A stretch of 64,000 bases of DNA from a virus (lineage: Duplodnaviria > Heunggongvirae > Uroviricota > Caudoviricetes): positions 1-64,000 of the IMG/VR virus record IMGVR_UViG_3300021963_000087, one strand, 5' to 3'. This document shows positions 18,902 to 51,673 of the stretch, in pieces. The translations under genes were made by a program, and so were the position numbers. Under the pieces are notes generated by a model. That model did not search any database. It was not told the origin of the DNA and saw nothing but the letters and a program-made list of their open reading frames with translations. Every line of letters starts with the position of its first letter. The stretch's first letter is position 1.

Positions 18902-19336
18902 ATGGGAAACTTTAGACCCTTCGAGCTAGATCCATTTGACTTGCTTTGGAGAAATTTACTAGACACACAATCACACTTTACTGCACTCACGCAGAAAATC
19001 ACACATCCAGTAGACATTTTTGAAACAGAACAAGGCGTACTCTTTGAAGTAGCTGCTGTAGGACTTTGTCAAGAAGACATTGAAATTCTTGTCGACGGAG
19101 ATCAATTACGCATCAAACACGATGCAAAACCATTTAATCAAGAAAACGCTCTTTACAGAGGTATTAAAAGATCTGGTTTTGACCTTACTTTTAAGATCTC
19201 AACTAAGTTTGATCTATCACAGTTAGCAGCATCTTTAGACAAAGGATTACTAACTCTCAGTATTCCAGTTGCTGAAGGTAAAGCAGTGCGTAGAATTGAA
19301 ATCAATGTGCCAAAAGCACTTCCAGCTAAAAAATAA
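18902..19336 (+). CDS. small heat-shock protein (Hsp20/alpha-crystallin family)
   Basis: Alpha-crystallin core PVDIFETEQGVLFEVAAVGLCQEDIEILVDGDQLRI. Confidence 0.75.
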   Translation: MGNFRPFELDPFDLLWRNLLDTQSHFTALTQKITHPVDIFETEQGVLFEVAAVGLCQEDIEILVDGDQLRIKHDAKPFNQENALYRGIKRSGFDLTFKISTKFDLSQLAASLDKGLLTLSIPVAEGKAVRRIEINVPKALPAKK

Positions 19337-19558: not shown

Positions 19559-19849
19559 ATGAGTAAATTACAACCAATGAATGGCTATCTAATACTGAAG
19601 CCAATTGAAGAAGAGGAGCAAACGTATGGCAACATCGTAATCCCAGATTTAGGTAAAGAGAAGCCTGAAATCGGAATAGTAGTAGCAACATCAGGAACCT
19701 ACAACTTTAATTCAGACAAGTTAGTACCATCAAGTCTACAAGAAGGAGACAAAGTCTTAATTCCAAAATTAGGATCTTTGAGAATTACTGTGGAAGGTGA
19801 GGAGTACTACATTACAAAAGAACAAGACGTTTATTCAAAATTTAATTAA
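19559..19849 (+). CDS. groES: co-chaperonin GroES
   Basis: 96 aa. LKPIEEEEQTYGNIVIPD mobile-loop region and GroES fold pattern. Immediately upstream of groEL. Confidence 0.8.
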   Translation: MSKLQPMNGYLILKPIEEEEQTYGNIVIPDLGKEKPEIGIVVATSGTYNFNSDKLVPSSLQEGDKVLIPKLGSLRITVEGEEYYITKEQDVYSKFN

Positions 19850-19851
19850 AA

Positions 19852-21516
19852 ATGGCAACACAAACAGTTTTTGGAATAGAGCTAAAAAATAAACTATTAG
19901 CAGGTATTAAGCAATTAAACCATTCTGTGTCTTCAACATTAGGACCAGGTGGTAGAACAGTTTTGATCAAGGATAGATCAGGCGAAGTGAAAGTAACTAA
20001 AGATGGTGTGACTGTTGCAAAGTCGTTTCATGAATTAGAAGACCAAGTTGAGGACTTAGGTGCTCAATTAGTAAAGCAAGTATCTATTAAGTCTGCTAAT
20101 GAAGCAGGTGATGGTACTACTACTTCAACTTTACTTACTACTGTTATGGTAGAGGAAGGATTGAAACTAATTAACCAAGGTTCTAATCCAGTAGAAGTTA
20201 AAAAAGCAATTGACAAATATGTAGCACAAGTAGTTGAAAACTTGAGAAACATATCTCAAGACATTTCAACAGAAGAACAGATTAAGCAAGTGGCTACTAT
20301 TTCTGCTAACAACGATACTGAAGTAGGAGAATTAATTGCTACAGCTATTGGTAAAGTTGGTAGAGAAGGTATTGTTACAATTGAAGAATCTAAAACTGGT
20401 GAAACTAGTTTAGAAGTTGTGGAAGGTATGCAGTTTGATAGAGGTTACAAATCTCCTTACTTCGTTACCAACAATAATACAATGACTGCTACATTGGATG
20501 AACCATATGTTTTAATCTACGATGGTAGAATTACTACTGCAGCAGAGTTGTTAAATGTTTTGAATAAGGTAAACTCAGAGAACAAATCTTTGTTGATTGT
20601 TGCTGAGGATATTGATGGTGAAGCATTGGCAACTTTGATTGTTAATAAGATGAGAGGTATTGTTAAAGTGGCTGCTGTTAAAGCACCTGACTTTGGTGAA
20701 AGAAAAACCTTGCTTTTGGAAGACTTAGCTATCTTGACAAAGGGTCAAGTTATAAGTAAAGACAAAGGACATAAGTTAGATAAATTAACACCAGTCCAAT
20801 TAGTAGAATTTTTAGGTAAAGCTAGATTGGTAACAGTTGGTAAAGAAGATACTACAGTTGTAGATGGTAAAGGTGAGACGGAAGCAATTAATGCAAGAGC
20901 TGAAGAAATTAAAGAGCAAATTGAAAAAGCTGGTTCATTCTACGAAAAAGAGAAACTACAAGAGAGATTAGGTAAACTAATTGGTGGTGTAGCTATCATT
21001 TCAGTAGGAGGTAACTCAGACATTGAAATTAAAGAAAAGAAAGATAGAGTAGAAGATGCTTTATTTGCTACCAAAGCAGCATTAGTTGAAGGAGTAGTTC
21101 CAGGTGGAGGTATTGCTTTGATTGAAGCTTTTGAGTCAGTAGGTTTACCACAAACTGCATCAAGCGATAATCAAAAGGGTTGGGATATTGTAAGAAAGGC
21201 TTGTAATAGTCCTTTTACTACAATCTTAACAAATTGCGGTATTGAAGATTATTATGGAATTTTACGTCTTATTAAAGATACACGCGGAGATTTCTTTGCT
21301 GCTTCACAACAAGATGAGTTATTTACCTATAATGCTAAAACCCATACTGTAGTACATGCTGTCGAAGCAGGATTGTTAGATCCCACCAAAGTAACACGCA
21401 CAGCTTTAGAGAATGCAGCATCAGTAGCTGGAACAATATTAACCACCGAATCAGTTATCTTCGAAAAGAAAGACGACAAGTCTAAAGAAGATGACATGAT
21501 GTCACAATACCAATAG
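19852..21516 (+). CDS. groEL: chaperonin GroEL
   Basis: [14 protein letters not shown]-binding motif, [27 protein letters not shown], and the C-terminal tail MMSQYQ. Confidence 0.93.
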
Positions 21517-22575: not shown

Positions 22576-24687
22576 ATGAGAAAACTATTAGTATTTATTC
22601 TACTTTTGGTAGGAGTGACTGGGTTTGGTCAAATTAAATTTAAGGCGAGTACATCTATTGGGGGAGCTACTCTTGATAGAGGTAGTGAGTTTGATTATAT
22701 AGTATATGGTAATGGTAATTCCGATGCAACAACTCGCCAATTACTTTTTGATTTGCAATATGATAAAGACAATTTTGAAATAGTATCCGTAAACCATACA
22801 GGTACAGGAGGTAATGGTGGTATCTTACCACAAAACAGTACTATCAATTTATCATACTACAACTATCCTGGCTACAGCTGGGCTGCAGTAACATCAGGCA
22901 ACAGTGCTAACAACACTACAAATGGTAGCACTAACTATCAATACGCTCAGTATGTTTATAGTGGTACTAGTGCAAACGCTATATTAAGAATTACACTTAC
23001 CTGGGCCACTACTTCAGCAATGCCTTATAACTCTTATAGTGATTTTATTAAGGTAAGATTTAGATTAAAAGCAGCATCTACTGCATATACTTTTAATCCA
23101 ATCAAGTTAAACTTTGTTGCAGGTTGGAATAATGCAGGAACTATAGTAGCTACTACAATGGAATCTCCACTATCTACGGCAGTTGTAATGAATCAAAACT
23201 ACGGCAAGTATGTAACTGCAAAAGTTGATCTAAACTCAAACCTATATAATTTAACAGGTTTGAAAGTATCTTTTAAGGATACTGCAACTAATACAGGACA
23301 ACTGTTTAATGTATTATCAGATGGTAGTGTTGATATCAATCAATCTTTATTAGCTGCTAACAAAGTTTACAGTGTTAGTTTAATGCATGAGATGGATAAG
23401 ATCTACACAATATATAATGGTGCAATAACAATATCAGATTTTACTACAGCCCAAAATGAATTCACTTCTATGGGATTAGATGGCACTAATGGTCAAATTT
23501 TAAAAACAGGTCAGTCATTATATGCTGCAGATATTAACAGAAACAATAAAATTGATGGTGGTGACTTGCCTAGATTGTTAGCTCAAATAGCTACTTTAGA
23601 TACTTTAAATACATTGCCAACTGGGTATACAGTAGGTAGTGGTGGTTATATGAGTCTACCAACTTGGAGATCAACTGATGTAACAACTGTAGCTGGTCAA
23701 ACAGAATGGGGATATGTTACACCTGGTACTAACTTTAGTACTTTGCGTATTGACATGAGAAAGTTTCCTAGTGGTGTAGCTGCCAATACCATCAAGAGTA
23801 TCCAGCTATTTGATGTATACACAGGTCCTATTGAGTATATAAGCGAAGATGCTTCTTGGGCACAATACAAAGTACCTTCTACTTTAACCAAAGCTACAGA
23901 TGGTACTTCTATATTCAATTCATACATTAGAAACATAAATGGTCAAAATGCTGACTATGCGTTTCAAGTAGAGTTCGCTTTCAATACCGATCCAGCAAAC
24001 TCTTGGGGAGCAATAACAACTTCAAACTGGAAGGACATATCATATCCTAAGACATACTTTAAGACTACTACATTAGGAGCTAATCAAATTTTAGATCTTA
24101 AGTATCTTTTATGGGGTGATGTAAATAGATCACACTCATCTCAAGTAGTAACTACAAGTGGTGGTAGCAGTACAGTACAAACAAATGCAGTTAATAGCTT
24201 AAGAACGAATGATGCATTTGCAAGTATGGCTACAGCTAATATGGCTTACATCAATACTCCTAACGATATTACTGCTATAGATGTTAATTTAACAAACATA
24301 ACAGTAACATCAAATACTATTGAGATTCCTGTAGATCTTGATACTAAAGGAGCAAGTGTAGGTGGTTTACAATTAGAGTTCCAATACGATCCAACTAAGA
24401 TTAAGTTTGAAGAGATAGTATCAAATATTCCAAGTACTTGGTATGTGTTTGCTACTTCTAAAGATGGCAAGGTTAAGTTTGGAGCTTTGGATCAAAACAA
24501 CAAAACTGGAATCAAAGGAGTTAATACTCCATTTAAATTAAAGTTCTCAACAATTGGTAGTGGAGTTGATATTCTAACATCTGTAAAAGTTTCACCAACT
24601 ATGGATGCTAGTAGTATTAACGGAACCCAATTAGGTATTAATTTAAACAGAACCCAAATCAAATTAACAGGATATAATAACTTCTAA
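22576..24687 (+). CDS. large secreted protein with dockerin/EF-hand-like Ca-binding loop
   Basis: Signal peptide MRKLLVFILLLVGVTGFGQ, motif DINRNNKIDGGDL, and Thr/Ser/Asn-rich beta-type composition. Confidence 0.5.
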   Translation: MRKLLVFILLLVGVTGFGQIKFKASTSIGGATLDRGSEFDYIVYGNGNSDATTRQLLFDLQYDKDNFEIVSVNHTGTGGNGGILPQNSTINLSYYNYPGYSWAAVTSGNSANNTTNGSTNYQYAQYVYSGTSANAILRITLTWATTSAMPYNSYSDFIKVRFRLKAASTAYTFNPIKLNFVAGWNNAGTIVATTMESPLSTAVVMNQNYGKYVTAKVDLNSNLYNLTGLKVSFKDTATNTGQLFNVLSDGSVDINQSLLAANKVYSVSLMHEMDKIYTIYNGAITISDFTTAQNEFTSMGLDGTNGQILKTGQSLYAADINRNNKIDGGDLPRLLAQIATLDTLNTLPTGYTVGSGGYMSLPTWRSTDVTTVAGQTEWGYVTPGTNFSTLRIDMRKFPSGVAANTIKSIQLFDVYTGPIEYISEDASWAQYKVPSTLTKATDGTSIFNSYIRNINGQNADYAFQVEFAFNTDPANSWGAITTSNWKDISYPKTYFKTTTLGANQILDLKYLLWGDVNRSHSSQVVTTSGGSSTVQTNAVNSLRTNDAFASMATANMAYINTPNDITAIDVNLTNITVTSNTIEIPVDLDTKGASVGGLQLEFQYDPTKIKFEEIVSNIPSTWYVFATSKDGKVKFGALDQNNKTGIKGVNTPFKLKFSTIGSGVDILTSVKVSPTMDASSINGTQLGINLNRTQIKLTGYNNF

Positions 24688-28284: not shown

Positions 28285-29553
28285 ATGAAAAAATGGGTAA
28301 GATTTCTTTCAATATTCGTTTTGTTCCTAATAGCTTATCAAGCTAACGGACAAGTCATTACCCAAACCTATACAGATCCATGCGACGGTAAAGTTTACAC
28401 AATATCCGTCCCAATTCCAAACCAAGTAGTAGTCGTTGTTATTAGAGGTAAGACTAAAACGTTTACCTATGTAGAAGCACAATCAGGTGTTATGTCTACT
28501 TGGATCACTACAATCCTATCAGAGCCATGTCCAGTATCAATAGCCGTAACCGTAGCCCAACAGGCTGCGCAAGCGGCAAGCAGTGCAGCATCCTCGGCAG
28601 CGAGTTCAGCAGCTTCATCAGCAAGCTCAAGCGCATCTTCAGCAGCATCATCCGCAGCATCAAGTGCTTCGAGCTCAGCAGCATCCTCTACCCCTGCATC
28701 AACTTCATCGGGATCATCATCTTCCTCCCAATCATCTTCATCATCTACGGAGTCATCATCATCCAGTGGATCATCGGAAAGCAGCGGAGGAGGGGAAACA
28801 AAATCAGAAAGCAAGCAAGAAAGCAGTGAGTCTAAATCTGAATCAAAAGAGGAAAAGAAATCAGAAGAGAAGAAGAAAGAAGAGGAAAAGAAAAAGAAAC
28901 AAGAAGAGCGAAAAGCTAACCCTCCAGTAGTCAAAGCAGACCTGTCAGTTATACAAGCAGGATTTGTTGTAATACCTACTCTCAATCTTAACATGTCAAA
29001 GTCTTTAAACGACGGGATGTTAAACTGGGGACTCAGCACTTCTGTCAGAGCTGATCTAAAGCAAATAGTAATAGGTGGTAACACATCAAGTGTTATCATG
29101 AAAGAAGGAAAAGTAAAAGGTGTAACATCTACAAGTGTTACTTATGTAACCGATTGGAGTAATCAATTTATTTTTTATGGTTGGAGTTATATAAGGTTAT
29201 TGAATAAAGGTGCTGTAGCTGGATTAAGTTTGAGTGGTAACGAATTACTAATAAAGGGTAACCAATTAATGTTATCTCCTTCAGTAATTGTTTTCTATAC
29301 AAGACCTATCCAAGTAACTAAAAAGCAAACAGTATCTCCAGAGTTGTATCTTATATCCTCTCCACTTATGTATGGACAGAAAGATAAAGTTGCAACTTAT
29401 GATTACAATGTATCATTCTTTACTGGAGCTGGAACGGATATAGTATTTACCAAGAAGTTTAAAGCTAACTTTAACTTTAAGGTAAACATAAGCACTAATC
29501 CAAATGTACCTTTGATGAGTGTTTTTTCAATAGGCTCAAAAATAAATTTATAG
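28285..29553 (+). CDS. secreted protein with Ser/Ala-rich and Lys/Glu-rich low-complexity tracts
   Basis: Signal peptide, (SSAAS)n tract, KE-rich tract, and a beta-rich C-terminus. Confidence 0.5.
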   Translation: MKKWVRFLSIFVLFLIAYQANGQVITQTYTDPCDGKVYTISVPIPNQVVVVVIRGKTKTFTYVEAQSGVMSTWITTILSEPCPVSIAVTVAQQAAQAASSAASSAASSAASSASSSASSAASSAASSASSSAASSTPASTSSGSSSSSQSSSSSTESSSSSGSSESSGGGETKSESKQESSESKSESKEEKKSEEKKKEEEKKKKQEERKANPPVVKADLSVIQAGFVVIPTLNLNMSKSLNDGMLNWGLSTSVRADLKQIVIGGNTSSVIMKEGKVKGVTSTSVTYVTDWSNQFIFYGWSYIRLLNKGAVAGLSLSGNELLIKGNQLMLSPSVIVFYTRPIQVTKKQTVSPELYLISSPLMYGQKDKVATYDYNVSFFTGAGTDIVFTKKFKANFNFKVNISTNPNVPLMSVFSIGSKINL

Positions 29554-29605: not shown

Positions 29606-30298
29606 GTGAAGTCAACAGAAGTTATTTTCTTGGATAAGTATTATGAGTATAGAGATTTTATAGAAGAATGTAAGAGAAAGGAGTATGGTGGTGAATTAGT
29701 ATTACACTTACATCACATACTCCCAAAACATTTAGAAACAGGGTTACCTGATAAAACCAATACAACTTACCTAAGTGTTGATGATCATATAAACGCTCAT
29801 TTACTCTTAGCTAAATGTTTTACTGAAGGTTCTTATGAAAGATTAGCAAATATAAGGTCTGCTAAATTATTATCAAAGAATTCTATAAAAGAGTTGCATT
29901 TATTAGAAGAGTTAAGTAAATTTAGTAAAGGAGTAAATAATCCATTCTTTGGTAAAAAACACACAGAGGATACTAAGGAACTACTTCGCAAAGCTACTAC
30001 GTTGAGTAGAAAGAATGTAAGCTATGAAGAGTTTTACGGAAATAGAGCTGAAGAGGAGAAACAAAAAAGAGCTGTGAAGCAGAAACAAGTTTGGAATAGT
30101 AGATCGAAAAAAGAAAAAGATACTATAAAAGAAAAAATAAAACTGGCTAAGATAAACATGGACGTTTCTGGAGGTAATAATCCAAATTCTAAGGAAGTTT
30201 ACATAGACAGTGTTAAATTTAGTTCAATCTCAGAAGCAAAAAAATATTATAATAAATCAAGATACAAACTTTTTAAAGAACATAAAATAACATACTAA
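29606..30298 (+). CDS. HNH homing endonuclease with NUMOD-like repeats
   Basis: LHLHHILPKH HNH motif and NPFFGKKHTEDTKELLRKA (NUMOD3-like). Confidence 0.65.
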   Translation: MKSTEVIFLDKYYEYRDFIEECKRKEYGGELVLHLHHILPKHLETGLPDKTNTTYLSVDDHINAHLLLAKCFTEGSYERLANIRSAKLLSKNSIKELHLLEELSKFSKGVNNPFFGKKHTEDTKELLRKATTLSRKNVSYEEFYGNRAEEEKQKRAVKQKQVWNSRSKKEKDTIKEKIKLAKINMDVSGGNNPNSKEVYIDSVKFSSISEAKKYYNKSRYKLFKEHKITY

Positions 30299-30555
30299 TG
30301 CCTAGAATACTATACTTCTCTACTCCAACTTGTGGTCCATGTAGAATGTTTAAACCACTTGTTCAACAAGTCTCTGCTGAAACAGGAGTAAGCATTACTT
30401 ACATAGATGCTACCCTAGATCCACACACTGCCCAGCAATTTAACGTGAGTGTGGTTCCTACAATAATTGTAGAGAATAATGGAACCGTGCTTTATAGAAG
30501 TTCCGGTGTAATGCCAAAGCCTCAATTAGCAAACGTGTTGTCACAATTTAAATAA
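30298..30555 (+). CDS. thioredoxin
   Basis: 85 aa with the TCGPC active site. Confidence 0.75.
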   Translation: MPRILYFSTPTCGPCRMFKPLVQQVSAETGVSITYIDATLDPHTAQQFNVSVVPTIIVENNGTVLYRSSGVMPKPQLANVLSQFK

Positions 30556-30794: not shown

Positions 30795-30822
30795 AAAGAC
30801 TACGCAGTAGAAAGGTCTTTTT
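30795..30822 (+). terminator. candidate terminator
   Basis: aaagac...gtcttt stem followed by a T-run; the loop is long. Confidence 0.3.
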
Positions 30823-30859: not shown

Positions 30860-31244
30860 GGGGATGCCTGGAATTGATCCAGATGAGATGGGTAGTATCG
30901 CATGCAAGAGCTGGTAGAGCTCAAACAATCTATCGAACAACAAACGACGAAATGTCAACTATGACCTTCGAAGACTTAATGTCTTTCGTAGGCGCGAATG
31001 AGTACGCAGTAGCGGCTTAATTAGCAACGGGTCGGTGCACATATAACCTAGGAACAGAAGTGTTTACAAAGTGATAACACCACCTTAAAAGTGTTAAATG
31101 TTTTCTTTGTTATGTCAAAACAAAGTGGTGGATCTTGGTACTTAATCGTACGGCCCTTTACTGATCAGGTAAAACAGATCTAAGCATGTAAGAATGGTAT
31201 TATTTATACTTCTGGAGACAGGGGTTCGATTCCCCTCATCTCCA
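30860..31244 (+). ncRNA. ssrA: tmRNA (SsrA), full length; tag ends ...GANEYAVAA-stop
   Basis: 5' GGGGAUG pairs with 3' CAUCUCC including the G3-U70 wobble. T-arm is agggg-ttcgatt-cccct. Internal tag ORF reads ggc gcg aat gag tac gca gta gcg gct taa. Confidence 0.75.
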
Positions 31245-31291
31245 CTGGGTGCCTTTTTGTATCTTTTAACTATTTATAGTAAAGGTATAAA

Positions 31292-31933
31292 ATGGCAAAG
31301 CAAACATATGGTACTAGAAAGAAGTATCACTACATCTACAAAACAACTAATTTACTTAGTGGTAGGTATTACGTAGGGATGCATTCTACGGATGATTTAA
31401 ACGATGGCTATATGGGATCGGGTAAACGTCTGAAAGCTTCTATTAAAAAGCATGGAATTGAGAATCATAAATTTGAAATTCTAGAATTTTTTAATTCAAG
31501 AAAAGAGCTCGCTTTAAGAGAAGGACAATTAGTGACGATGAAAGAAGTTGCTAGTAAAGAGTGCATGAATCTTAAAGTCGGTGGTATTGGTGGATTTCCT
31601 CCAAGCGCTAAAAAAATCTTTATGGAGAAGATGAAAGATTTTGACTTCAAGAAAGTATTTGGCGAAAAATGCTCAGAGCGCAATAAAAAACTTTACGAAA
31701 GTGGAGTTTATAAAAATTTTAAGTATGATTGGACGGGTAAAAAGCACAGACCTGAATCTATTCAGAAAATGAAAGATACTAAGAAAGGTCAAGGTAAAGG
31801 AGAGATAAATTCTCAATTCGGTACTTTTTGGATTACAGACGGTAAAACAAATAAAAAAACAACTTCTAAAATACCAGAAGGATGGTATAGAGGAAGAGTT
31901 CTTAAAAATACAAATAACTGTGTGACCGAATAA
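31292..31933 (+). CDS. GIY-YIG homing endonuclease
   Basis: YIYKTTNLLSGRYYVGMHS...DGYMGSG; the GIY-YIG motifs are intact. Confidence 0.85.
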   Translation: MAKQTYGTRKKYHYIYKTTNLLSGRYYVGMHSTDDLNDGYMGSGKRLKASIKKHGIENHKFEILEFFNSRKELALREGQLVTMKEVASKECMNLKVGGIGGFPPSAKKIFMEKMKDFDFKKVFGEKCSERNKKLYESGVYKNFKYDWTGKKHRPESIQKMKDTKKGQGKGEINSQFGTFWITDGKTNKKTTSKIPEGWYRGRVLKNTNNCVTE

Positions 31934-32237: not shown

Positions 32238-32309
32238 CGCAAGATAGAGCAGAGGTAGCTCACTAGGCTCATAACCTAGGGGTCGAAGGTTCGAATCCTT
32301 CTCTTGCAA
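32238..32309 (+). tRNA. tRNA-Met (CAT), initiator-like
   Basis: C1-A72 mismatch, D-arm gagc-agaggta-gctc identical to E. coli tRNA-fMet, anticodon loop ctCATaa, T-loop ttcgaat, 3' GCAAC. Confidence 0.75.
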
Positions 32310-32316
32310 CAAATAT

Positions 32317-32448
32317 GCCAGAGTGGCGGAATAAACAATGCATTGCTATACACGCGTTAAAGCACTAATGCATTGAGACGTGCCCTAATCCGGAGTGGTG
32401 CAGTGACCGAAAAGGACTGCGTGAAGGTAACCAACCCTTCCTCTGGCA
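32317..32448 (+). ncRNA. tRNA-like structured RNA (132 nt; paired termini, tRNA-Leu-like 5' end, no canonical cloverleaf)
   Basis: 5' gccagag pairs with 3' ctctggc, followed by a-cc. An internal 10-bp hairpin is built from the palindrome caatgcattg, and a second hairpin is gcagt-(11 nt)-actgc. Confidence 0.35.
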
Positions 32449-32462
32449 CCTTAATATAACGA

Positions 32463-32547
32463 AGCCTTGGTGTTGGAACTGGTAGACAAGTCAGACTTAA
32501 AATCTGGTTCGCTGAAAGCGAGTGCGGGTTCGATTCCCGCCTGAGGC
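32463..32547 (+). tRNA. tRNA-Leu (TAA)
   Basis: Class II tRNA. D-arm ttggaactggtagacaa, anticodon loop ctTAAaa, long variable arm, T-arm gcggg-ttcgatt-cccgc. Confidence 0.8.
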
Positions 32548-32571
32548 ACGGGCAGTATTATGTGTATTACT

Positions 32572-32656
32572 TGGAAAGATGGCAGAGTGGTTGAATGCAC
32601 CGGTCTTGAAAACCGGCAACTGTAAAAGGTTCTGGGGTTCGAATCCCTGTCTTTCC
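32572..32656 (+). tRNA. tRNA-Ser (TGA)
   Basis: Acceptor ggaaaga/tctttcc, anticodon stem ccggt/accgg with loop ctTGAaa, long variable arm, T-loop ttcgaat. Confidence 0.8.
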
Positions 32657-32767
32657 GCAAGATGTCTATCCCCCTTCCCAACGAACAGGGCGCTTAGGGT
32701 AGGCCTTTTACCAAAGTGGATAAAACGTGTAGTAACCACAGGGATGCTAGCTCCCACTACACTCTTC

Positions 32768-32838
32768 TGCCCTTTAGTATAACGGTAGTACGGCAGTTTT
32801 TGGTACTGCTTGTTGAGGTTCGAATCCTTGAGGGGCAA
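32768..32838 (+). tRNA. tRNA-Gln (TTG)
   Basis: U1-A72 as in E. coli tRNA-Gln, U8 A9, anticodon stem gcagt/actgc with loop ttTTGgt, T-arm tgagg-ttcgaat-ccttg. Confidence 0.7.
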
Positions 32839-32851
32839 CAAAATAAAAGTT

Positions 32852-35165: not shown

Positions 35166-36596
35166 ATGAAAGAAGGTTACATTCCACAGGCAGATAGAAA
35201 GAAGATTCTATTACTCTGCGATGATATTAGATTTACATCTGGTATCTCAACAATGGCTAAAGAGATTGTCATTGGTACATCACATCGTTTTAATTGGGTA
35301 AACTTAGGAGCAGCTATCACTCATCCTGATCAAGGTAAGAGATTTGATGTTTGCCAAGATACAAACCAAATAGCAGGTATTACCGATTCATCGGTATTCA
35401 TTATACCTACCTCAGGTTATGGTAATCCAGACTTGCTACGTCAAGTAATTGAAATGGAGAAGCCTGATGCATTAATGTTCTTTACCGATCCGAGATATTG
35501 GATTTGGTTATTCCAAATGGAGAACGAGATTAGAAAGAAGATCCCAATGATTTATTTAAACATTTGGGATGACTTACCAGCACCTTTATACAATGAACCA
35601 TACTACGAGTCTTGTGACACATTGTTAGCTATTTCAAAGCAAACTGCTAACATTAATAGATTGGTACTTGGAGATAAGGCTAAGGATAAGATTATTAAGT
35701 ATGTACCTCATGGTATTAACGAGAAAGTATTCTTCCCATTACCTAAAGACACACCTGAGATACAAGCAATGAGAAAGTTATACTTCGGAGATGATCAACC
35801 TGAGTTTGTTTTATTCTACAATGCTAGAAACATTAGACGTAAGTGTACTTCAGATCTTATCTTAGCGTATGCTCAGTTCTGTGATAAGATTGGTAAAGAG
35901 AAAGCTAAAAAATGTGCTTTGCTTTTACATACTCAAAGAGCAGATGAGAATGGTACTGACTTACCAGCTGTTATAGATTTATTCTGTGACCCTGAGTATC
36001 AAAGAGTTGTATTCTCTGAGTACAGATATTCTCCACATCAAATGAATCATTTATACAACTGTGCAGATGCTGTTACTTTAGTTTCTTCTAATGAAGGCTG
36101 GGGCTTATCTTTGACAGAAGGTATGATGACTGGTAAGATGATTATTGGAAACGTAACAGGAGGTATGCAGGATCAAATGAGATTTGAAGATGAGAATGGT
36201 AAGTGGATTGATTTTGATGAGAAGTTCTGTAGCAATCACTTTGGTACTTACAAAAAGCATGGAGAGTGGGCAGTACCTGTGTATCCTTCTAATTTGTCAA
36301 TTGTTGGTTCTATTCCTACTCCATACATTTTTGATGACAGAGCAGACTTTAGAGATATTGCAAAAGCAATTGAGGAAGTTTATAACTTAGGTCCTGAAGA
36401 AAGAGAAAGAAGAGGTTTGAAAGGAAGAGAGTGGGCTACTTCAGAAGAGTCAATGCAAAGTGCTAGTTCAATGTCTAAGAATATTATTGATGGTGTTGAA
36501 GAAACATTTGCTAAGTGGAAGCCGAGAAAGAAACATCAACTTATCAAAGTGAAGAAGCTACCACGTAAAAAGGCAGCACACTCGTTGGTATATTAA
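35166..36596 (+). CDS. glycosyltransferase, GT4-like (GT-B fold)
   Basis: SSNEGWGLSLTEGMMTGKMIIG (E-x7-E motif). Confidence 0.65.
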   Translation: MKEGYIPQADRKKILLLCDDIRFTSGISTMAKEIVIGTSHRFNWVNLGAAITHPDQGKRFDVCQDTNQIAGITDSSVFIIPTSGYGNPDLLRQVIEMEKPDALMFFTDPRYWIWLFQMENEIRKKIPMIYLNIWDDLPAPLYNEPYYESCDTLLAISKQTANINRLVLGDKAKDKIIKYVPHGINEKVFFPLPKDTPEIQAMRKLYFGDDQPEFVLFYNARNIRRKCTSDLILAYAQFCDKIGKEKAKKCALLLHTQRADENGTDLPAVIDLFCDPEYQRVVFSEYRYSPHQMNHLYNCADAVTLVSSNEGWGLSLTEGMMTGKMIIGNVTGGMQDQMRFEDENGKWIDFDEKFCSNHFGTYKKHGEWAVPVYPSNLSIVGSIPTPYIFDDRADFRDIAKAIEEVYNLGPEERERRGLKGREWATSEESMQSASSMSKNIIDGVEETFAKWKPRKKHQLIKVKKLPRKKAAHSLVY

Positions 36597-36620
36597 TAAA
36601 TAAAGTTTATATTTTAAAAC

Positions 36621-37895
36621 ATGAAACAATACTGCGTTATATCAGCACCTCCAGACACATATAGTGGTTATGGTGCAAGATCAAGAGATTTTATAAAAGC
36701 TATCTATGAGCTTAAAAAGGATGAGTGGGATATTCAAATCATACCGCAGAGATGGGGTAACACTTCTTGGGGTTTCTTAGAAGATAATAAAGAGGAGTGG
36801 GGTTGGATGATTCCATTATTGTTGAAGAGTCCTATGACAAGACAACCTGATGTATGGTTTCAAATCACAGTACCTAGTGAGTTCCAACCAGTGGGTAAGA
36901 TTAATATAGGAGTTACAGCAGGTATTGAAACTACAGTATGTGATTCTAGTTGGATCGAAGGTTGTAATAGAATGAATGCAATATTTGTATCATCCGTACA
37001 TGCTAGAACAGTATTACAAACTACAGCCTTTACTAAGAAGGATGATCCTAACTTTCAAATCAAATTAACTAAGCCTGTTGAAGTTCTATTCGAAGGAGTA
37101 GATCTAAACAAGTACTTCCATATTCCAGATGATGAGTTACCTGAAACAGATCTAGTATTAGACTTAGATGAGATTGAAGAAGACTTTTGTTTTCTATATG
37201 TAGGACACTGGTTGCAAGGAGACTTAGGAGAGGATAGAAAGAACACAGGTAAGCTAGTTCAGGTTTTCTTAGAAACCTTTAAAGGAAAGAAAAAGAAACC
37301 TGCTTTAATTATGAAGACTTCTAGTGCAACATCTTGTATTATGGATAGAGATGAAATGCTTAGAAAGATTAACATTCTTAAAGAAGCTGTGGGTGGTGAT
37401 ATACCAAACATTTACTTACTACATGGTGATATGGATGATGAAGATATGAACTGTCTCTATAACCATCCTAAAGTAAAAGCCTTTGTATCATTTACAAAAG
37501 GTGAAGGATATGGAAGACCTTTAGCAGAGTTCTGCTTATCCAAGAAGCCAATGATAACTACAGCATGGTCAGGTCATATAGATTTCTTAAGTAAAGAGTT
37601 CAGTGTACTATTACCAGGAAAGCTTACAGAGACTCATCCATCAGCTCATTCTAATACTTTAATACTTCCAGGTGCATCTTGGTTTACAGTAGACTACGGA
37701 GCAGCAACAAAAGCATTGGAAGATGTTTATAGTAACTATAAGAAGTATGAAGAGATGGGTAAGCGTCAAGGACATAAGATCAAGACTGAGTTTAGCTACG
37801 ACAACATGGTATTATTCTTATCAGCTTATTTAGCTAAGTATGTTCCTAAGCAAGTAGAATTAAAATTACCTCAACTAAAGAAAATATCTATATAA
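36621..37895 (+). CDS. glycosyltransferase (GT-B fold, GT4-like)
   Basis: SFTKGEGYGRPLAEFCLSKKPMITT. Confidence 0.5.
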   Translation: MKQYCVISAPPDTYSGYGARSRDFIKAIYELKKDEWDIQIIPQRWGNTSWGFLEDNKEEWGWMIPLLLKSPMTRQPDVWFQITVPSEFQPVGKINIGVTAGIETTVCDSSWIEGCNRMNAIFVSSVHARTVLQTTAFTKKDDPNFQIKLTKPVEVLFEGVDLNKYFHIPDDELPETDLVLDLDEIEEDFCFLYVGHWLQGDLGEDRKNTGKLVQVFLETFKGKKKKPALIMKTSSATSCIMDRDEMLRKINILKEAVGGDIPNIYLLHGDMDDEDMNCLYNHPKVKAFVSFTKGEGYGRPLAEFCLSKKPMITTAWSGHIDFLSKEFSVLLPGKLTETHPSAHSNTLILPGASWFTVDYGAATKALEDVYSNYKKYEEMGKRQGHKIKTEFSYDNMVLFLSAYLAKYVPKQVELKLPQLKKISI

Positions 37896-38320
37896 TGACT
37901 AGTCAAGAATTTGTAATATGGTTAAAAGGATTCACTGAAGGTGTGCATGATTTTAACGTTACACCTAAGCAGTGGGATATAATGAAAGATAGATTAGCAG
38001 AAGTATCAGACGATAAGTTTGCAGAAACACCAGGTATGTTTCAAGATCACACTGTACAATCTTATCCTCCGTATTGGAGTCCACATAGTCCCTTTTACAC
38101 AACAAGTGGTACTAGTGGCTCAATAGATACAAGGAGTATAGTTTCTCAATGGACAACAACTCCAAACAACATTACCTACACAGTAACCTCAGGCTCTTCC
38201 TATATTGGAGCAGGCAGCACTTATACTCATACTTATCCTAACGGAACTACTGTGAGCTATACAGCAGGTGGAACAGATGATAATTGGAATATAAAAAATA
38301 AAGACTTACTACATGATTAA
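37895..38320 (+). CDS. hypothetical protein (Thr/Ser/Tyr-rich C-terminus)
   Basis: ORF in array. Confidence 0.35.
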   Translation: MTSQEFVIWLKGFTEGVHDFNVTPKQWDIMKDRLAEVSDDKFAETPGMFQDHTVQSYPPYWSPHSPFYTTSGTSGSIDTRSIVSQWTTTPNNITYTVTSGSSYIGAGSTYTHTYPNGTTVSYTAGGTDDNWNIKNKDLLHD

Positions 38321-38750
38321 AGATGAAATGATAATATGCCCTAAGTGTGGCTGTGATGGATGTTATAAGACTCCAATCAACGAAACCTTATCAAACTACT
38401 TCTGTTGGGGATGTGGTTATCAAACTAATGACTTAATGAAAGAAGGAGAGTTTGACTTTGAAAAGTTTGAAGAAGTATTGCCTGAACTATATAAAGATGT
38501 TAGATATACTGATGCTGAGAATAGAGTTTGGTATCCTGCTGTAGTTAATATAGAAGATAAAGGAACTGTGTTCTTGAATGGGAAGAGTGTTGACGAAGTT
38601 CAATGGGCAGGTATTAAAGTAATTAAATTAACAGACGAAGAAAAAGAACAACCTAAGTTTAAAGGTAAAGAGTATAAGTCAGATGCTAAATCTCTAAAAG
38701 AGTTTGGTAATGACTTTATTGAAGCCTGTGACTATATTGGAGTATTTTAA
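38313..38750 (+). CDS. zinc-ribbon protein
   Basis: CPKCGCDGC...CWGCG. Confidence 0.4.
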   Translation: MIKDEMIICPKCGCDGCYKTPINETLSNYFCWGCGYQTNDLMKEGEFDFEKFEEVLPELYKDVRYTDAENRVWYPAVVNIEDKGTVFLNGKSVDEVQWAGIKVIKLTDEEKEQPKFKGKEYKSDAKSLKEFGNDFIEACDYIGVF

Positions 38751-38753
38751 ACT

Positions 38754-39602
38754 ATGAATGCATTAGTAACAGGTGGTTGTGGCTTTATAGGTTATGCCTT
38801 ATCTAAAGAATTACTTCTGAGAGGTTGTAGTGTTGATGTTATAGATAACTTGTTTATAGGTAATGAAGCTAAGTTAGCAGAAGGAATAAATTTTTTAGGT
38901 GGTGATGTTAGAGCAATGGATAACATACCAAATAAACCATATGATTACATATTTCATTTAGCAGCATTAAGTAGAATACAACCATCGTTCAAAAACCCAG
39001 AGCTAACATTCAATCACAATGTAGATGGTACAAAGCAAGTTACAAAGTATGCATACCAAACCAAGTCTAAATTAATATACGCAGGCTCATCATCTCGACA
39101 TCACAATCCAGAAATATCACCTTACGCTGTGAGTAAGCATATGGGAGAAGAGTGGATAAAGATGTATAAAAATGTGTATGGATTAAATGCAGAGATAGTT
39201 AGATTCTATAATGTATACGGACCAGGTGAGTTAGTAGATTCTCATATGGCAGCTGTTATTGGTAAATGGAGAGCTCAAGCTAAAAAGAATTATCCAATTA
39301 CAATTATAGGTGACGGAAAGCAAAGAAGAGATTTTACTCACATAGACGACATTGTAGATGGTTTGATAAGAGTTGCCGAAAGTGATAAAGGACATGAGGA
39401 TGCATGGGAATTGGGTACAGGTAAAAACTATTCTATAAATGAGGTAGCCGATATGTTTAGAAAAAGGCTTGGTTGTGTGAAAGTTTATATGACTGACCAG
39501 AAAGGAAATTATAGAGAGACGTTGAGAATTAACAGTGATGCTGTTAATATATTAGGATGGCAACCAAAAGATAGATTAGAAGATTATATAAAAAGCTTAT
39601 GA
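38754..39602 (+). CDS. NAD-dependent sugar epimerase/dehydratase (SDR family)
   Basis: VTGGCGFIGYAL Rossmann motif and Y-x3-K (YAVSK). Confidence 0.75.
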   Translation: MNALVTGGCGFIGYALSKELLLRGCSVDVIDNLFIGNEAKLAEGINFLGGDVRAMDNIPNKPYDYIFHLAALSRIQPSFKNPELTFNHNVDGTKQVTKYAYQTKSKLIYAGSSSRHHNPEISPYAVSKHMGEEWIKMYKNVYGLNAEIVRFYNVYGPGELVDSHMAAVIGKWRAQAKKNYPITIIGDGKQRRDFTHIDDIVDGLIRVAESDKGHEDAWELGTGKNYSINEVADMFRKRLGCVKVYMTDQKGNYRETLRINSDAVNILGWQPKDRLEDYIKSL

Positions 39603-40216
39603 AAATTAGTTACGCAATTCCTGTCTGTAATGAAGACGAAGAGTTAGATAGATTACTAACTCAACTTATAGAACATAAACGTCACCAAGACGAAATCGTA
39701 GTACAGTGTGATGAAGGTAATACAACTTCTAAAGTTTATGCAGTATTAGATAAACACGATAAGTATATTAAAGTTGTACAATTTCCTCTCAAAGGGGACT
39801 TTGCATCTTTTAAGAACAACTTAAAGAAGAACTGTACTGGAGAATGGATCTTTCAAATAGATGCTGATGAGTATCTCGATGTAAGATTTTTAAAGCAAGT
39901 ACATGAAATTCTACAACAAAACCCTACAGTAGATCTATTCTTAGTTCCTAGAATCAATAAAGTAGAAGGTCTTACTGATGAACATGTTAAGAGATGGGGA
40001 TGGAGAGTAGATGATCATGGCTATGTAAACTTCCCAGACTACCAAACTAGAATACTACAAAACTCTCCTAAGATTAATTGGGTAAGCAAAGTACATGAAG
40101 TATTAACAGGACACAGCAACTACACAATGTTACCAGCTCAGGAAGAATATTGTTTAGTACATATTAAAAATATCGCACGTCAAGAAAGACAAAATAACTT
40201 TTATAATACATTATAA
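39599..40216 (+). CDS. glycosyltransferase family 2-like (small)
   Basis: SYAIPVCNEDEELDRLL and a DAD motif region. Confidence 0.45.
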   Translation: MKISYAIPVCNEDEELDRLLTQLIEHKRHQDEIVVQCDEGNTTSKVYAVLDKHDKYIKVVQFPLKGDFASFKNNLKKNCTGEWIFQIDADEYLDVRFLKQVHEILQQNPTVDLFLVPRINKVEGLTDEHVKRWGWRVDDHGYVNFPDYQTRILQNSPKINWVSKVHEVLTGHSNYTMLPAQEEYCLVHIKNIARQERQNNFYNTL

Positions 40217-41196
40217 TGAATAAGGTTGCATTAATAACAGGAATCAATGGACAAGATGGATCTTACTTAGCAGAATATTTGCTAGAGTTAGGATACCATG
40301 TTCACGGCATACTAAAACGTAATTCAGTAGCAGAGAATCAAACAGCTAGACTAGACAAAGTGTTTGGTCTTATTCACTTCCACTATGCTGATATGACAGA
40401 TCTTTCATCCTTGTACAGAGTAATAAACAAAGTACAGCCTGATGAGATCTATAACTTAGCTGCACAATCACACGTACGTATTTCTTTCGATCAACCAATC
40501 TATACAGCCAACACTACAGGGTTAGGAGTACTTAACTTATTAGAAGCTGTAAGAGAAATCAATCCTAGGATCAAAATATATCAAGCATCTTCTTCAGAGA
40601 TGTTTGGTAACTCTGTTGATCCAGATGGCTTCCAAAGAGAAACTACCCCAATGCATCCAGTATCTCCTTACGGATGTGCAAAAGTGTTTGGGTATAACAT
40701 TGCTAGGAACTATAGAAACTCCTATGGAATGTTTATCTCAAATGGTATCTTATTCAATCATGAATCAATTAGAAGAGGTACAAACTTCGTAACTAATAAA
40801 GTTGCTAAGGAAGTAGCTAAGATTAAACATGGTTACTCTGAGGAATTGTTGTTAGGTAACTTAGATGCTTCAAGAGATTGGGGTCATGCTAAAGACTTTG
40901 TTAAAGCAATGCACTTAATTCTACAACTAGATCAGCCAGATGACTTTGTTTGTGCTACAGGAATATCTCATACGGTAAGAGATTTATGTGATTATGCTTT
41001 CACCGAACTAGATTTAGATTATAAAAAGTATGTACATTTACACGAAAAATTTTTAAGACCAGAAGAACTCAACTTTCTAAAAGGAGATCCATCTAAGCTA
41101 ATGGCTATGACAGGATGGAAGCCTGAGTATACTTTTGAAAGTATGATAACAGAAATGGTTGAGTATTGGGATCGTTTATATAGAAAAGTATATTAA
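40216..41196 (+). CDS. gmd: GDP-mannose 4,6-dehydratase
   Basis: KVALITGINGQDGSYLAEYLLELGYHVHGI...YNLAAQSHV...YQASSSEMFG, near-colinear with E. coli Gmd. Confidence 0.93.
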   Translation: MNKVALITGINGQDGSYLAEYLLELGYHVHGILKRNSVAENQTARLDKVFGLIHFHYADMTDLSSLYRVINKVQPDEIYNLAAQSHVRISFDQPIYTANTTGLGVLNLLEAVREINPRIKIYQASSSEMFGNSVDPDGFQRETTPMHPVSPYGCAKVFGYNIARNYRNSYGMFISNGILFNHESIRRGTNFVTNKVAKEVAKIKHGYSEELLLGNLDASRDWGHAKDFVKAMHLILQLDQPDDFVCATGISHTVRDLCDYAFTELDLDYKKYVHLHEKFLRPEELNFLKGDPSKLMAMTGWKPEYTFESMITEMVEYWDRLYRKVY

Positions 41197-41197
41197 T

Positions 41198-42094
41198 ATG
41201 AAAGTAGTAGTAACAGGCGGAACAGGATTAGTAGGAACTTACCTACAAGAATACCTCGATGGAGTTTATGTAAACTCTTCACACTACGACCTAACTTTTG
41301 AAGGTGATGTAGCAGATCTATACAATGATCATAAGCCGGATGTAGTTATTCACTTAGCTGCTAAGGTAGGAGGTATTGTGGATAACATCGAACATCCCTT
41401 TGAGTACTATGAACAAAACCTCTTAATGAATACTTACATGGTTAAGTATGCAAGAGAGTTCAAAGTTGAGAAATTCATAGGTGTATTATCTTCTTGCATC
41501 TTCCCAGACGTAGTTGATCACTATCCTATGGTAGAAGAAGATATGCATAAGGATTTACCCAATGCAAATAACTTTGGATATGGATATGCTAAAAGAGTTA
41601 TGGGTTGCCATATTGACATAGCTAGAAAGCAAGGTTTAAACTTCTCCTACATTACTCCTTCCAACTTGTATGGTGAATATGAACATGGAGATGTAAGCAG
41701 AAAGCATTTTGTTGGAGCATTACTTGAGAAGATCCATACTGCAAAGGTAAATGGAGATGATCATATAACTTTATTTGGTGATGGAACTCCTCTAAGACAG
41801 TTTACATTTGCAAGAGATGTAGCAGAGATTCTTAAAAGGATTGTTAAATGTGATATAAAAGAGAACTTAAACATAAGTACTCCCAGCAACATGACCATAG
41901 ATTTTATGGCTAGAGAAGCTTTAGAAGCTTTAGGTATGCAAGATATTAGAATTCTTTACGATATGTCTAAACCTAATGGTCAATATAGAAAAGATATAGA
42001 TACAACTAAATTTAAAAACATATTTCCTAACTACGAATTTACTTCGTATGTTGAGGGTATAAAACAAACCTACAATACACTATATGGAAAGTAA
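41198..42094 (+). CDS. GDP-L-fucose synthase-like (Fcl/ColC family 3,5-epimerase-4-reductase)
   Basis: Start set at MKVVVTGGTGLVG after the gmd stop. HLAAKVGGIV, SSCIFPD and YGYAK match Fcl. Confidence 0.8.
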   Translation: MKVVVTGGTGLVGTYLQEYLDGVYVNSSHYDLTFEGDVADLYNDHKPDVVIHLAAKVGGIVDNIEHPFEYYEQNLLMNTYMVKYAREFKVEKFIGVLSSCIFPDVVDHYPMVEEDMHKDLPNANNFGYGYAKRVMGCHIDIARKQGLNFSYITPSNLYGEYEHGDVSRKHFVGALLEKIHTAKVNGDDHITLFGDGTPLRQFTFARDVAEILKRIVKCDIKENLNISTPSNMTIDFMAREALEALGMQDIRILYDMSKPNGQYRKDIDTTKFKNIFPNYEFTSYVEGIKQTYNTLYGK

Positions 42095-43424
42095 GAAGCA
42101 AGCCATCTTAGACTTGGTGGCAGAGTACATTAAAGAAAAGAAAGCAAACAAGACATGGACAGCAGGTAAAGATTGGGTTCAATACTCAGGTCCTTGGTTT
42201 AATCAAGATGAATTTACAGCAGGCGTCAGTACTTTGCTCGACGAGTGGTTTATCTTAGGACAGAAAGGTAGAGACTTTGAACATAAGTTCGCTCCATTGA
42301 TCGGAAAGAAAGATGGTATTGTAGTTAACTCAGGTAGTTCTGCAAACCTATTAATGGTTTCTTTATTGAGAACTAAGAGAGGTGGGAACCTACCAATAGG
42401 TTCTAAGTTCATTACTCCAGTAGTTTGTTTCCCAACTACAATCAATCCTTTGATTCAGAATGGATTCAAGCCAGTTTTTGTAGATGTAACATTACCTAAC
42501 TTGAATTTAGACTTGGATCAAGTAGAAGCTGTTTTAGAAGCTGATACAGCGAAGGAGATTAAAGGATTAATATTTGCTCACGTATTAGGTAATCCTCCTG
42601 ATATGGACAGAATAATGGCTATTGTGAAGAAGTATGACTTGATCTTCTTGGAAGATACTTGTGATGCTTTAGGTTCAACTTGGGATGGTAAGCCATTAGG
42701 ATCTTTCGGAGACATTTCAACTTGTTCATTCTTCCCAGCTCACCACATGACAATGGGTGAAGGTGGATTCGTAGCAGTTAATTCAGCTAAGAAGAGAATG
42801 GCTTTAGCTTCATTGAGAGATTGGGGTCGTGCTTGTTATTGTAATTCTACTAAGCCAGGTAACGTAACAGAAGGTACAGCTTGTGGATGTAGATTTGGAG
42901 ATTGGTTTAAAGGTCAACCAGATATTATCTTTGATCACAGATATGTGTTTGAAGAGATTGGTTATAACTTAAAGCCAACAGAAATGCAAGCAGCTATGGG
43001 ATTAGCTCAATTAGATAAGTTAGATGAGATGCATGCTAGAAGAAAGCACAACTTCAAAAGATTGTACGACATCTTTAGTCAGTATCCTGATTTCTTCTAT
43101 TTACCTGAAATGCATGAGAAAGCTGATGCATCTTGGTTTGGTTACTTAGTAACATTGAAAGATGGTTTACATTTCACTAAGAGTCAAATGGTAGATGCTA
43201 TGGAAGAAGCTAAGATCCAAACTAGATCTTACTTCACAGGTAATGCTTTATTCCACCCAGCTTATGAAGAGTTAGCTGCAGAGTATGAAAACCCAAGAGA
43301 GCAATTCCCTATAGCAACTAAGACTACTTTAGATACATTCTTCCTAGGAGTATACCCTGGAATCACAGATGCACAGTTGGATTATATTGAGCAAGTAGTT
43401 CATGACTTTTTAAAGAATATCTAA
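42084..43424 (+). CDS. DegT/ColD-like PLP enzyme; probable GDP-4-keto-6-deoxy-D-mannose 3-dehydratase
   Basis: DegT fold. Active-site motif SFFPAHHMTMGEGG has His where aminotransferases have Lys, which is the ColD hallmark. Confidence 0.6.
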   Translation: MESKKQAILDLVAEYIKEKKANKTWTAGKDWVQYSGPWFNQDEFTAGVSTLLDEWFILGQKGRDFEHKFAPLIGKKDGIVVNSGSSANLLMVSLLRTKRGGNLPIGSKFITPVVCFPTTINPLIQNGFKPVFVDVTLPNLNLDLDQVEAVLEADTAKEIKGLIFAHVLGNPPDMDRIMAIVKKYDLIFLEDTCDALGSTWDGKPLGSFGDISTCSFFPAHHMTMGEGGFVAVNSAKKRMALASLRDWGRACYCNSTKPGNVTEGTACGCRFGDWFKGQPDIIFDHRYVFEEIGYNLKPTEMQAAMGLAQLDKLDEMHARRKHNFKRLYDIFSQYPDFFYLPEMHEKADASWFGYLVTLKDGLHFTKSQMVDAMEEAKIQTRSYFTGNALFHPAYEELAAEYENPREQFPIATKTTLDTFFLGVYPGITDAQLDYIEQVVHDFLKNI

Positions 43425-44260: not shown

Positions 44261-44261
44261 T

Positions 44262-51661: not shown

Positions 51662-51673
51662 ATATTTATATAC

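Follow-up and report, generated by a model that had tools for sequence, protein, structure and literature searches.

The 64,000-nt stretch of viral DNA analyzed here, referred to as the window (positions 1 to 64,000 of the IMG/VR virus record IMGVR_UViG_3300021963_000087), carries a gene for transfer-messenger RNA (tmRNA, ssrA), and we consider it quite probable that this is a functional, one-piece tmRNA with a long tag, encoded by a large, virulent-type phage related to the Flavobacterium phage vB_FspM_immuto (immuto hereafter). Phage tmRNAs are already known; the distinguishing trait of this one is an extended, conserved tag that is under-reported by automatic annotation.

Identity and Structural Conservation of the tmRNA

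A reading made from the letters alone (the sequence-only reading) had described the gene as a full-length tmRNA with tRNA-Ala-like paired termini that include G3-U70, a canonical T-arm, and a tag frame that ends in GANEYAVAA followed by UAA, and all these elements were recovered. ARAGORN called a tmRNA at 30860-31245 (+) with the tag ANEYAVAA* (30994-31020), and the Rfam model RF00023, with a gathering score of 47 bits, was matched from end to end (model positions 1-374 of 374) by nucleotides 30860-31247, with 75.3 bits and an E value of 1.9e-27. These results established the gene as a tmRNA. Both ends of the gene form a 7-bp acceptor stem (GGGGAUG/CAUCUCC) with a G3-U wobble and the discriminator A, the T-arm and T-loop could be read directly as AGGGG-UUCGAUU-CCCCU, and there is no anticodon arm. 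The G3-U70 wobble is the alanine identity element, and charging with this amino acid is predicted. The last codons of the frame read GGC GCG AAU GAG UAC GCA GUA GCG GCU UAA, which corresponds to GANEYAVAA and the stop codon. In the first pseudoknot (PK1), the hairpin GGUAGA...UCUAUC was aligned by Rfam to the PK1 hairpin of the model; the second PK1 stem is a putative pairing read directly from the letters, and the two subgroups of homologues were out of register in this region of the alignment.

A profile search with nhmmer over the fetched loci gave 34 full-length homologues, 26 of them distinct, from viral and metagenome contigs, and their gene lengths ranged from 354 to 462 nt. The structure statistics were generated with 24 aligned homologues and compared with 500 shuffles and with slid controls, in which the 3' partner was moved by 1-3 columns. 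The G3-U70 pair was kept in all 24 homologues, and compensatory changes were found in three of the seven pairs of the acceptor stem (pairs 5-7). When the acceptor stem, the T-arm, and helix 2 were taken together, 98.2% of the cells were paired, against 41-59% in the slid controls, and 15 of the 30 pairs had changed on both sides. None of the 500 shuffles reached the observed values on four of the five measures; for the fifth, the number of further pair types, 21 shuffles did so. Because pairing and compensatory changes extend across the 24 homologues, strong selection acts on the structure of the tmRNA in its tRNA-like domain, and the RNA is not a remnant in decay. One hairpin downstream of the tag (columns 324-344 of alignment A3) was also found to covary. 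The region between the tag and the 3' part of the tRNA-like domain varied by about 100 nt among homologues; the variable columns were ~230-320 and 400-510 of the same alignment (window ~31040-31110 and 31170-31180). A block of about 45 nt (CCCCGCTATAGTCTCAGTATTATAGCTCTGCTCC...) was observed in the loci L005, L002, and L053 and is absent from the window tmRNA.

Four of the homologues were missed by ARAGORN, i.e., L002 (12065-12471), L053 (4297-4755, minus strand), L008 (13474-13839), and L010 (16337-16702). Rfam detected two of these four loci (58-77 bits), and the phage-group profile detected all of them. With eight tag residues reported for the window and these four homologues missed, it is clear that automatic annotation can misreport the tag, and surveys based on ARAGORN may undercount phage tmRNAs and mis-call their tags.

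The Tag Reading Frame and the Resume Site

The tag called by ARAGORN represents only the C-terminal third of an open frame. In tmRNAs, the internal tag frame lacks a start codon and is entered at a resume codon about 10-12 nt past PK1, with an A at position -4, and the tag closes with a hydrophobic ...AA tail and a stop codon. In the window, PK1 ends at 30934, a GAC codon is located at 30946, 24 open codons follow, and the frame ends in YAVAA-UAA. Translation most likely resumes at this GAC, a predicted resume codon, which would give the tag DEMSTMTFEDLMSFVGANEYAVAA. The alternative is a real tmRNA with a short tag, with resumption at GGC 30991 or GCG 30994 to give (G)ANEYAVAA; in this case, the conserved 45 nt between PK1 and the resume codon would fold as a hairpin and serve as a structured spacer that is not translated. 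ARAGORN reported ANEYAVAA for both the window and L005, and GANEYAVAA equals the Bacteroidota tag GENNYALAA in length and pattern. Moreover, compensatory changes support a hairpin in the upstream segment, and the nucleotides of this segment are identical in many homologues, with the last nine codons being rich in synonymous changes. Nonetheless, the resume context, the position in the gene, and the pattern of substitutions upstream, described in the following paragraphs, make a short tag unlikely.

Since a literature search for 'GENNYALAA' gave no match, the host-type tag was taken instead from a Bacteroidota sample of 101 ARAGORN tmRNA calls, made on loci recovered with a tag-shaped pattern. 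The tag was GENNYALAA in 76 of the 101 calls, and it started at gene positions 94-101 in 100 of them. The upstream site of the phage tmRNAs, at gene positions 85-93, fits this start position, and the internal GGC (132) does not: with a short tag, the distance of the resume codon from PK1 and from the 5' end would exceed that in the sampled bacteria by about 40 nt (132-135 vs. 94-101). A position weight matrix for the resume site was built from 53 distinct Bacteroidota contexts, all of which have A at -4, usually within UAAAY. With this matrix, the upstream site of the window, AACAAAC/GAC, scored +5.3 bits and ranked 3rd of 378 positions, whereas the internal site UUUCGUA/GGC, which lacks the A at -4, scored -7.5 bits and ranked 101st. 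When eight phage tmRNAs were scored, the upstream site was first in five, third in the window and L002, and 18th of 356 in L008, and the internal GGN site gave values from -4 to -13 bits. The tag GENNYALAA was also found in a tmRNA of L089 (CAVKHS010000005.1, Paratractidigestivibacter sp.), a record labelled as an actinobacterium; this Bacteroidota-type tag may come from bin contamination.

The frame was open from the homologous site (gene positions 85-93) in all 26 distinct homologues, and the ...A-A-stop end was conserved in 26 of 26. Tags of 23-24 codons were found in most homologues, and one of 27 codons in L004, where the extension has 18 codons of unrelated sequence and is open as well. 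Within the extension, there were 6, 6, and 12 variable sites at the first, second, and third codon positions, respectively, and the pairwise codon differences were 297 synonymous and 328 non-synonymous in frame, compared with 37/706 and 104/627 in the other two frames. In addition, codon families were switched (Ser TCT to or from AGT/AGC, Leu TTA to or from CTT) and the peptide xExSTMTFxDLMSFV was kept. Only the long frame is compatible with the variation at third positions, with the synonymous to non-synonymous ratios, and with the codon switches of Ser and Leu. This frame is under selection, and the conservation of the extension at the peptide level suggests that the C-terminal degradation signal is not the only information in the tag. 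The last nine codons also showed many synonymous differences among homologues, and this segment was aligned by nhmmer to the bacterial tag. Collectively, the phage tag is probably a Bacteroidota-type degradation signal with an in-frame 5' extension. The sequence-only reading had proposed that the tag end might differ from that of the host; this part stood, as GANEYAVAA differs from the GENNYALAA of most sampled Bacteroidota, but the larger difference is most likely the N-terminal extension and not the exchange of V for L.

ARAGORN did report long tags in two homologues, ADKTSRQEIGASIINMAFANAPVALAA from position 92 in L004 and VELSTMTFADLMSFVGADEYAYAA from position 90 in L052, and the codon at the homologous resume position in these is GCA or GUA. 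The long frame was called at GCA or GUA and not at GAC, suggesting that GAC is not among the resume codons allowed by ARAGORN; the short call in the window would follow from this.

Hairpins in and near the Tag

The hairpin inside the extension, itself conserved in part, was analyzed by covariation and folding. In the alignment, 91.3% of its cells were paired, and five of its ten pairs had changed on both sides. The covariation score was above that of all 500 shuffles, and 21 of the 500 had at least as many pairs with changes on both sides. The fold z-scores were between -2 and -3.6 in most variants and about -0.2 to -0.6 in two, and no hairpin was found in L004, which is a point against the short-tag alternative. 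Rfam had assigned the hairpin to helix 5, an assignment that was rejected because the homologues place it inside the real reading frame. The frame that uses the UAA in the hairpin loop was also discarded; it meets a stop before this UAA and gives EQQTTKCQL*, with no end resembling a degradation signal. The true helix 5 is probably the pairing at 31000..31018, where RNAalifold selected only the two inner G-C pairs, both of them invariant. A further hairpin, at the resume codon, was rejected because the GAC-type and GUA-type sequences pair in different registers, indicating that it is not a homologous structure.

Phage Location of the Gene

According to the sequence-only reading, the gene lies inside a phage genome, with thioredoxin and HNH genes upstream and GIY-YIG and tRNA genes downstream. 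The flanking genes were found as claimed with PHROGs, Pfam, and ARAGORN, and the phage location was confirmed by gene order, by the single-copy 3' end, and by the distribution of a group-specific motif. The tmRNA is surrounded by contiguous phage genes: 21 genes of the window are collinear with those of the cultured phage immuto (24-62% amino-acid identity), and 19-25 are collinear with the IMG/VR viral contigs L005 and L002 (up to 96% identity), where the tmRNA occupies the same position. The window also encodes DnaB, a class II ribonucleotide reductase, a family A DNA polymerase (PolA), and GroES/GroEL.

A host ssrA caught at a prophage integration junction, or a phage-host assembly chimera, was considered as an alternative, since ssrA is a common phage integration site and ssrA fragments are known in prophages (PMC9004378). 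Several results contradict this. The last 25 nt of the tmRNA are present in a single copy in the window, with no att-like repeat, and no integrase was found among the window open reading frames (ORFs) scanned (20 with PHROGs and nearly all with Pfam). Strand and composition are uniform, as nearly all ORFs of at least 60 codons are on the plus strand and the GC content is flat at about 35%. On both flanks, the gene order follows that of a cultured, lytic-type phage and of viral contigs, and the same tmRNA was found downstream of thioredoxin in independent contigs, viral and metagenomic, that come from different samples. Moreover, all full-length members scored above 160 bits on the phage-group model, and the best bacterial tmRNA reached only 35 bits. 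The tmRNA motif of the group, AAGTGGTGG...GTACGNCCC...TACTGATCAG, gave 29 matches in metagenome contigs and none in 185,579 bacterial and archaeal genomes, with each species represented by one genome; the pattern with CGTACG matched two viral loci only, and most members of the group have TGTACG at that place. A host junction or chimera is therefore already effectively refuted.

When the tmRNA region was compared by distant-mode blastn with 50,697 deposited phage records, no match was found. Megablast of 24 kb showed a 71%-identical glycosyltransferase in immuto and short tRNA-Ser matches, and nothing else. Because the syntenic 41 kb of immuto contain neither a tmRNA nor a tRNA, the RNA-gene island of the window is an accessory feature of the lineage.

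Proposed Function and Alternatives

We propose that the tmRNA gene is transcribed with, or beside, the small tRNA cluster, and that the transcript would be trimmed by the host RNase P and 3'-end enzymes. CCA would have to be added after transcription, because it is not encoded by the gene. The molecule would then be charged with alanine by the host alanyl-tRNA synthetase through G3-U70 and delivered to stalled ribosomes by SmpB, presumably that of the host because no SmpB gene was found in the window. Translation would resume at GAC 30946 and not at the GCG picked by ARAGORN, so the rescued protein would gain Ala and the full tag, i.e., the 15-residue extension of the phage group and then GANEYAVAA. 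Expression, charging, the use of host SmpB, and the fate of the tagged proteins are all predictions of this model. The benefit to the phage could be an extra capacity for ribosome rescue during infection, and the extension might offer a phage-specific handle on the tagged products.

Some observations weigh against a functional tmRNA with a long tag. GAC, an Asp codon, is unusual as a resume codon, and ARAGORN chose the short tag in the window. The 45 nt of the extension do not differ among 8 of the 26 distinct homologues, which leaves a modest number of independent substitutions, and part of the codon pattern is coupled to the hairpin. The region downstream of the tag, where pseudoknots PK2-PK4 would be expected, showed low Rfam posterior probabilities and varies in length among homologues. 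CCA is not encoded, as the gene ends in ...CUCCA with CUG after the discriminator, and no SmpB gene was found within the 64-kb window, which is part of a larger genome. The only grounds for placing the host, probably a member of Bacteroidota, are the tag type and the kinship of the phage with a Flavobacterium phage. As for the 3' end, an encoded CCA is present in L005, L055, L074, and L008 and absent in L052, L058, and L002; it is not needed for a molecule to belong to the tmRNAs, and a nucleotidyltransferase can add it. No CCA-adding enzyme, SmpB, Clp, or Lon protease was detected in Pfam scans of essentially all the ORFs of the window.

Another possibility is that the RNA acts as a decoy or inhibitor, whose tRNA-like domain titrates the host SmpB and lowers host trans-translation, with no tagging. 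In agreement with this, conservation is strongest in the tRNA-like domain, no phage SmpB gene was found in the window, and a role of this kind was suggested for the mycobacteriophage DS6A, where the tmRNA consists of the tRNA-like domain only; the same paper cites evidence that tmRNA is strongly inhibited by a molecule of similar type, perhaps through titration of SmpB (PMC4131195). However, the gene of the window extends over the full length of a tmRNA and includes PK1, a resume context, and an intact frame closed by a stop codon. This frame is also under purifying selection at the peptide level and keeps its A-A-stop end in 26 of 26 homologues, which would be needless in a pure decoy. We regard the decoy as highly improbable.

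A functional tmRNA with a long tag also raises the question of what the extension does. As a tentative idea, the chance of which we rate well below even, the extension (consensus xExSTMTFxDLMSFV) might be a phage-specific recognition module placed before a host-type degradation signal, rerouting the rescued proteins. If so, these would meet another adaptor, protease, or fate than host-tagged proteins, which would amount to a viral reprogramming of the ssrA tag; examples would be a faster clearance with amino-acid recycling or the evasion of a host response that monitors trans-translation. Under the same assumption, the in-frame hairpin could be a second control layer, at the RNA level. A group of environmental phage tmRNAs, tied to a Flavobacterium phage by gene order, keeps a tag of 23-27 residues with a phage part conserved as peptide, and this long tag is a testable handle on why phages carry tmRNA.

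Comparison with Known tmRNAs

The phage tmRNA resembles the one-piece tmRNA of Bacteroidota (RF00023) in its tRNA-Ala-like domain with G3-U70, helix 2, PK1, the ...UAAAC/G context with A at -4, the tag end Y-A-x-A-A-stop, a length of 354-462 nt, and a resume site at 85-93 vs. 94-101; in addition, its last nine codons align to the bacterial tag. In contrast, the sequence similarity is very low, with no more than 35 bits to the phage-group profile, and the resume codon is GAC, GUA, or GCA in the phages and GGC in the bacteria. The phage tag starts with 15 extra in-frame codons (18 in L004) containing the hairpin, and its antepenultimate residue is V, Y, or L, whereas that of the bacterial tag is L. 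Finally, the window copy does not encode CCA and is carried by a phage.

A published survey lists tmRNAs in 402 of 18,146 phage genomes (~2.3%), including two-piece forms in marine phages (PMC9004378), and phage tmRNAs have been described in Bxz1-like mycobacteriophages and Bacillus phage G (PMC4131195), in huge phages, some of which also encode SmpB (PMC7162821), and in the flavobacterial (Cellulophaga) phage Calle (PMC8776804). The roles proposed for them are the upkeep of the hijacked translation machinery and selective tagging for degradation (PMC9004378), or the sensing of the host load of stalled ribosomes (PMC7162821); the content of the phage tags was not analyzed in these reports (PMC9004378, PMC7162821, PMC4131195, PMC8776804). 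As in the known cases (Bxz1-like phages, phage G, OM43 phage Melnitz, pelagimyophages, huge phages, and Calle), the window has a complete ssrA in a lytic-type genome, and the gene adjoins tRNA and other translation-related genes, as is usual among them. Unlike those, it has no sequence match in the deposited phage records; unlike the two-piece tmRNAs of marine phages (Melnitz and pelagimyophages), it is one-piece, and unlike some huge phages that encode SmpB, none was seen in the window. Another difference from the known phage tmRNAs is that no riboswitch family reached the Rfam gathering score anywhere in the window.

The length of the tag also invites a comparison with the Mollicutes. The usual tmRNA tag has 10-11 residues, and those of Mollicutes, reportedly described by Gur and Sauer in 2008, are said to have about 27 residues, to start with Asp, and to be degraded by Lon. 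The phage tag is likewise far longer than usual and has Asp as the resume codon, and by analogy its added length may carry recognition information beyond the C-terminal residues. The Mollicutes tags are said to end in ...FAFA, whereas the phage tag keeps the canonical ...YAxAA, and there is no sequence relationship between the two.

Features of the tmRNA Locus and Neighboring Genes

The features of the locus are listed in Table 1. The upstream thioredoxin has homologues in 14 distinct related contigs, and wherever coordinates could be compared, the tmRNA follows a few hundred bases after the thioredoxin gene. Downstream, a copy of the GIY-YIG homing endonuclease, 67% identical, directly follows the tmRNA in the divergent L004 (12494-12685). 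L005 has no GIY-YIG gene at the tmRNA, and its tRNA-Met begins 4 nt after the tmRNA (12488-12492); the insertion of the GIY-YIG gene may have replaced the encoded CCA, leaving CUG at the 3' end in the window. An equivalent tRNA cluster is present in L005 and L002. Upstream of the tmRNA, an AT-rich stretch lies between the stem-loop at 30795..30822 and the 5' end of the gene, and the two could possibly be a terminator followed by a promoter region. A scan for sigma-70-type promoters and terminators upstream of the tmRNA gave only weak matches, at chance level.

Table 1. Coordinates of the tmRNA, its parts, and the adjacent features in the window.
Feature	Position	Strand	Basis or remark
HNH/NUMOD3 endonuclease	29606-30298		upstream of the tmRNA
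Thioredoxin	30298..30555	+	PF00085, 50 bits; kept as upstream neighbor of the tmRNA in the phage group
Stem-loop and T-run after upstream small ORF	30795..30822	+	conserved in L005 and L002
tmRNA (ssrA), one-piece	30860..31245	+	ARAGORN and Rfam RF00023; 386 nt including the first base after the discriminator
Acceptor stem, 5' strand, GGGGAUG	30860..30866	+	G3 is the partner in the G-U pair recognized by alanyl-tRNA synthetase
Pseudoknot PK1	30908..30934	+	stem 1 GAGC/GCUC, stem 2 GGUAGA/UCUAUC
Resume-site context AACAACAAAC	30936..30945	+	A at -4, C at -1; Bacteroidota position weight matrix
Resume codon GAC (predicted)	30946-30948	+	gene position 87
Proposed full tag frame DEMSTMTFEDLMSFVGANEYAVAA	30946..31020	+	24 codons (30946-31017) and UAA stop (31018-31020)
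15-codon N-terminal tag extension DEMSTMTFEDLMSFV	30946..30990	+	coding signature; absent from sampled Bacteroidota tmRNAs
Hairpin inside the extension, CCUUCGAAGAC-UUAAU-GUCUUUCGUAGG	30965..30992	+	covariation, folding
C-terminal nine codons, GANEYAVAA	30991..31017	+	like Bacteroidota GENNYALAA; presumed degradation signal
Candidate true helix 5, GAGU-A-CGC / GCG-GCUU	31000..31018	+	direct reading; ends at the stop codon
T-arm, AGGGG / loop UUCGAUU / CCCCU	31220..31236	+	5/5 pairs with compensatory changes, 100% of cells paired
Acceptor stem, 3' strand, CAUCUCC, and discriminator A	31237..31244	+	sequence reading, homologue alignment
GIY-YIG homing endonuclease	31292..31933	+	phrog_314, E 5e-36; between the tmRNA and tRNA-Met
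tRNA-Met-CAT, Leu-TAA, Ser-TGA, Gln-TTG cluster	32238..32839	+	ARAGORN, Rfam; one RNA-gene island with the tmRNA

Other Genes in the Window

A 62-residue ORF at 14577-14765 (+) encodes ribosomal protein S21 (bS21; PF01165, 43 bits vs. a cut-off of 27), and genes for Hsp20/alpha-crystallin (18902-19336), GroES (Cpn10, 19559-19849), and GroEL (19852-21516) lie side by side on the plus strand. GroES and GroEL are common to the window and immuto, with 41% and 57% identity, respectively. The presence of bS21, GroES/GroEL, Hsp20, and the tRNAs fits a wider phage investment in translation and protein folding.

Genes for PTPS/QueD (4551-5024) and GTP cyclohydrolase I (10321-11433) were found on the plus strand, together with a possible QueE-like ORF (5703-6536, +), which has no Pfam match and is labelled from its position in the immuto gene order only, and a DpdA-like ORF (13593-14402, +) with 24% identity to the DNA guanine transglycosylase of immuto. 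Together, these genes suggest that the phage DNA carries 7-deazaguanine modifications, for which immuto is also annotated. A sugar cluster of about 17 kb (35166-52438, +) contains glycosyltransferases, a GDP-mannose 4,6-dehydratase, several NAD-dependent epimerases, an aminotransferase, a methyltransferase, and a split transketolase-like pair; it is partly common to immuto and represents an unusually large sugar-nucleotide pathway for a phage.

Three further plus-strand genes encode proteins with a signal-peptide-like start. The first, of 422 residues (28285-29553), has a long, low-complexity Ser/Ala-rich part with SSAASS repeats, followed by a Lys/Glu-rich stretch and a conserved C-terminal domain; it gave no Pfam or PHROG match, and related viral contigs encode its C-terminal half with 73% identity. 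The second is a DNA/RNA non-specific endonuclease (PF01223, 26528-27160), and the third, of 703 residues (22576-24687), contains a cohesin-like domain.

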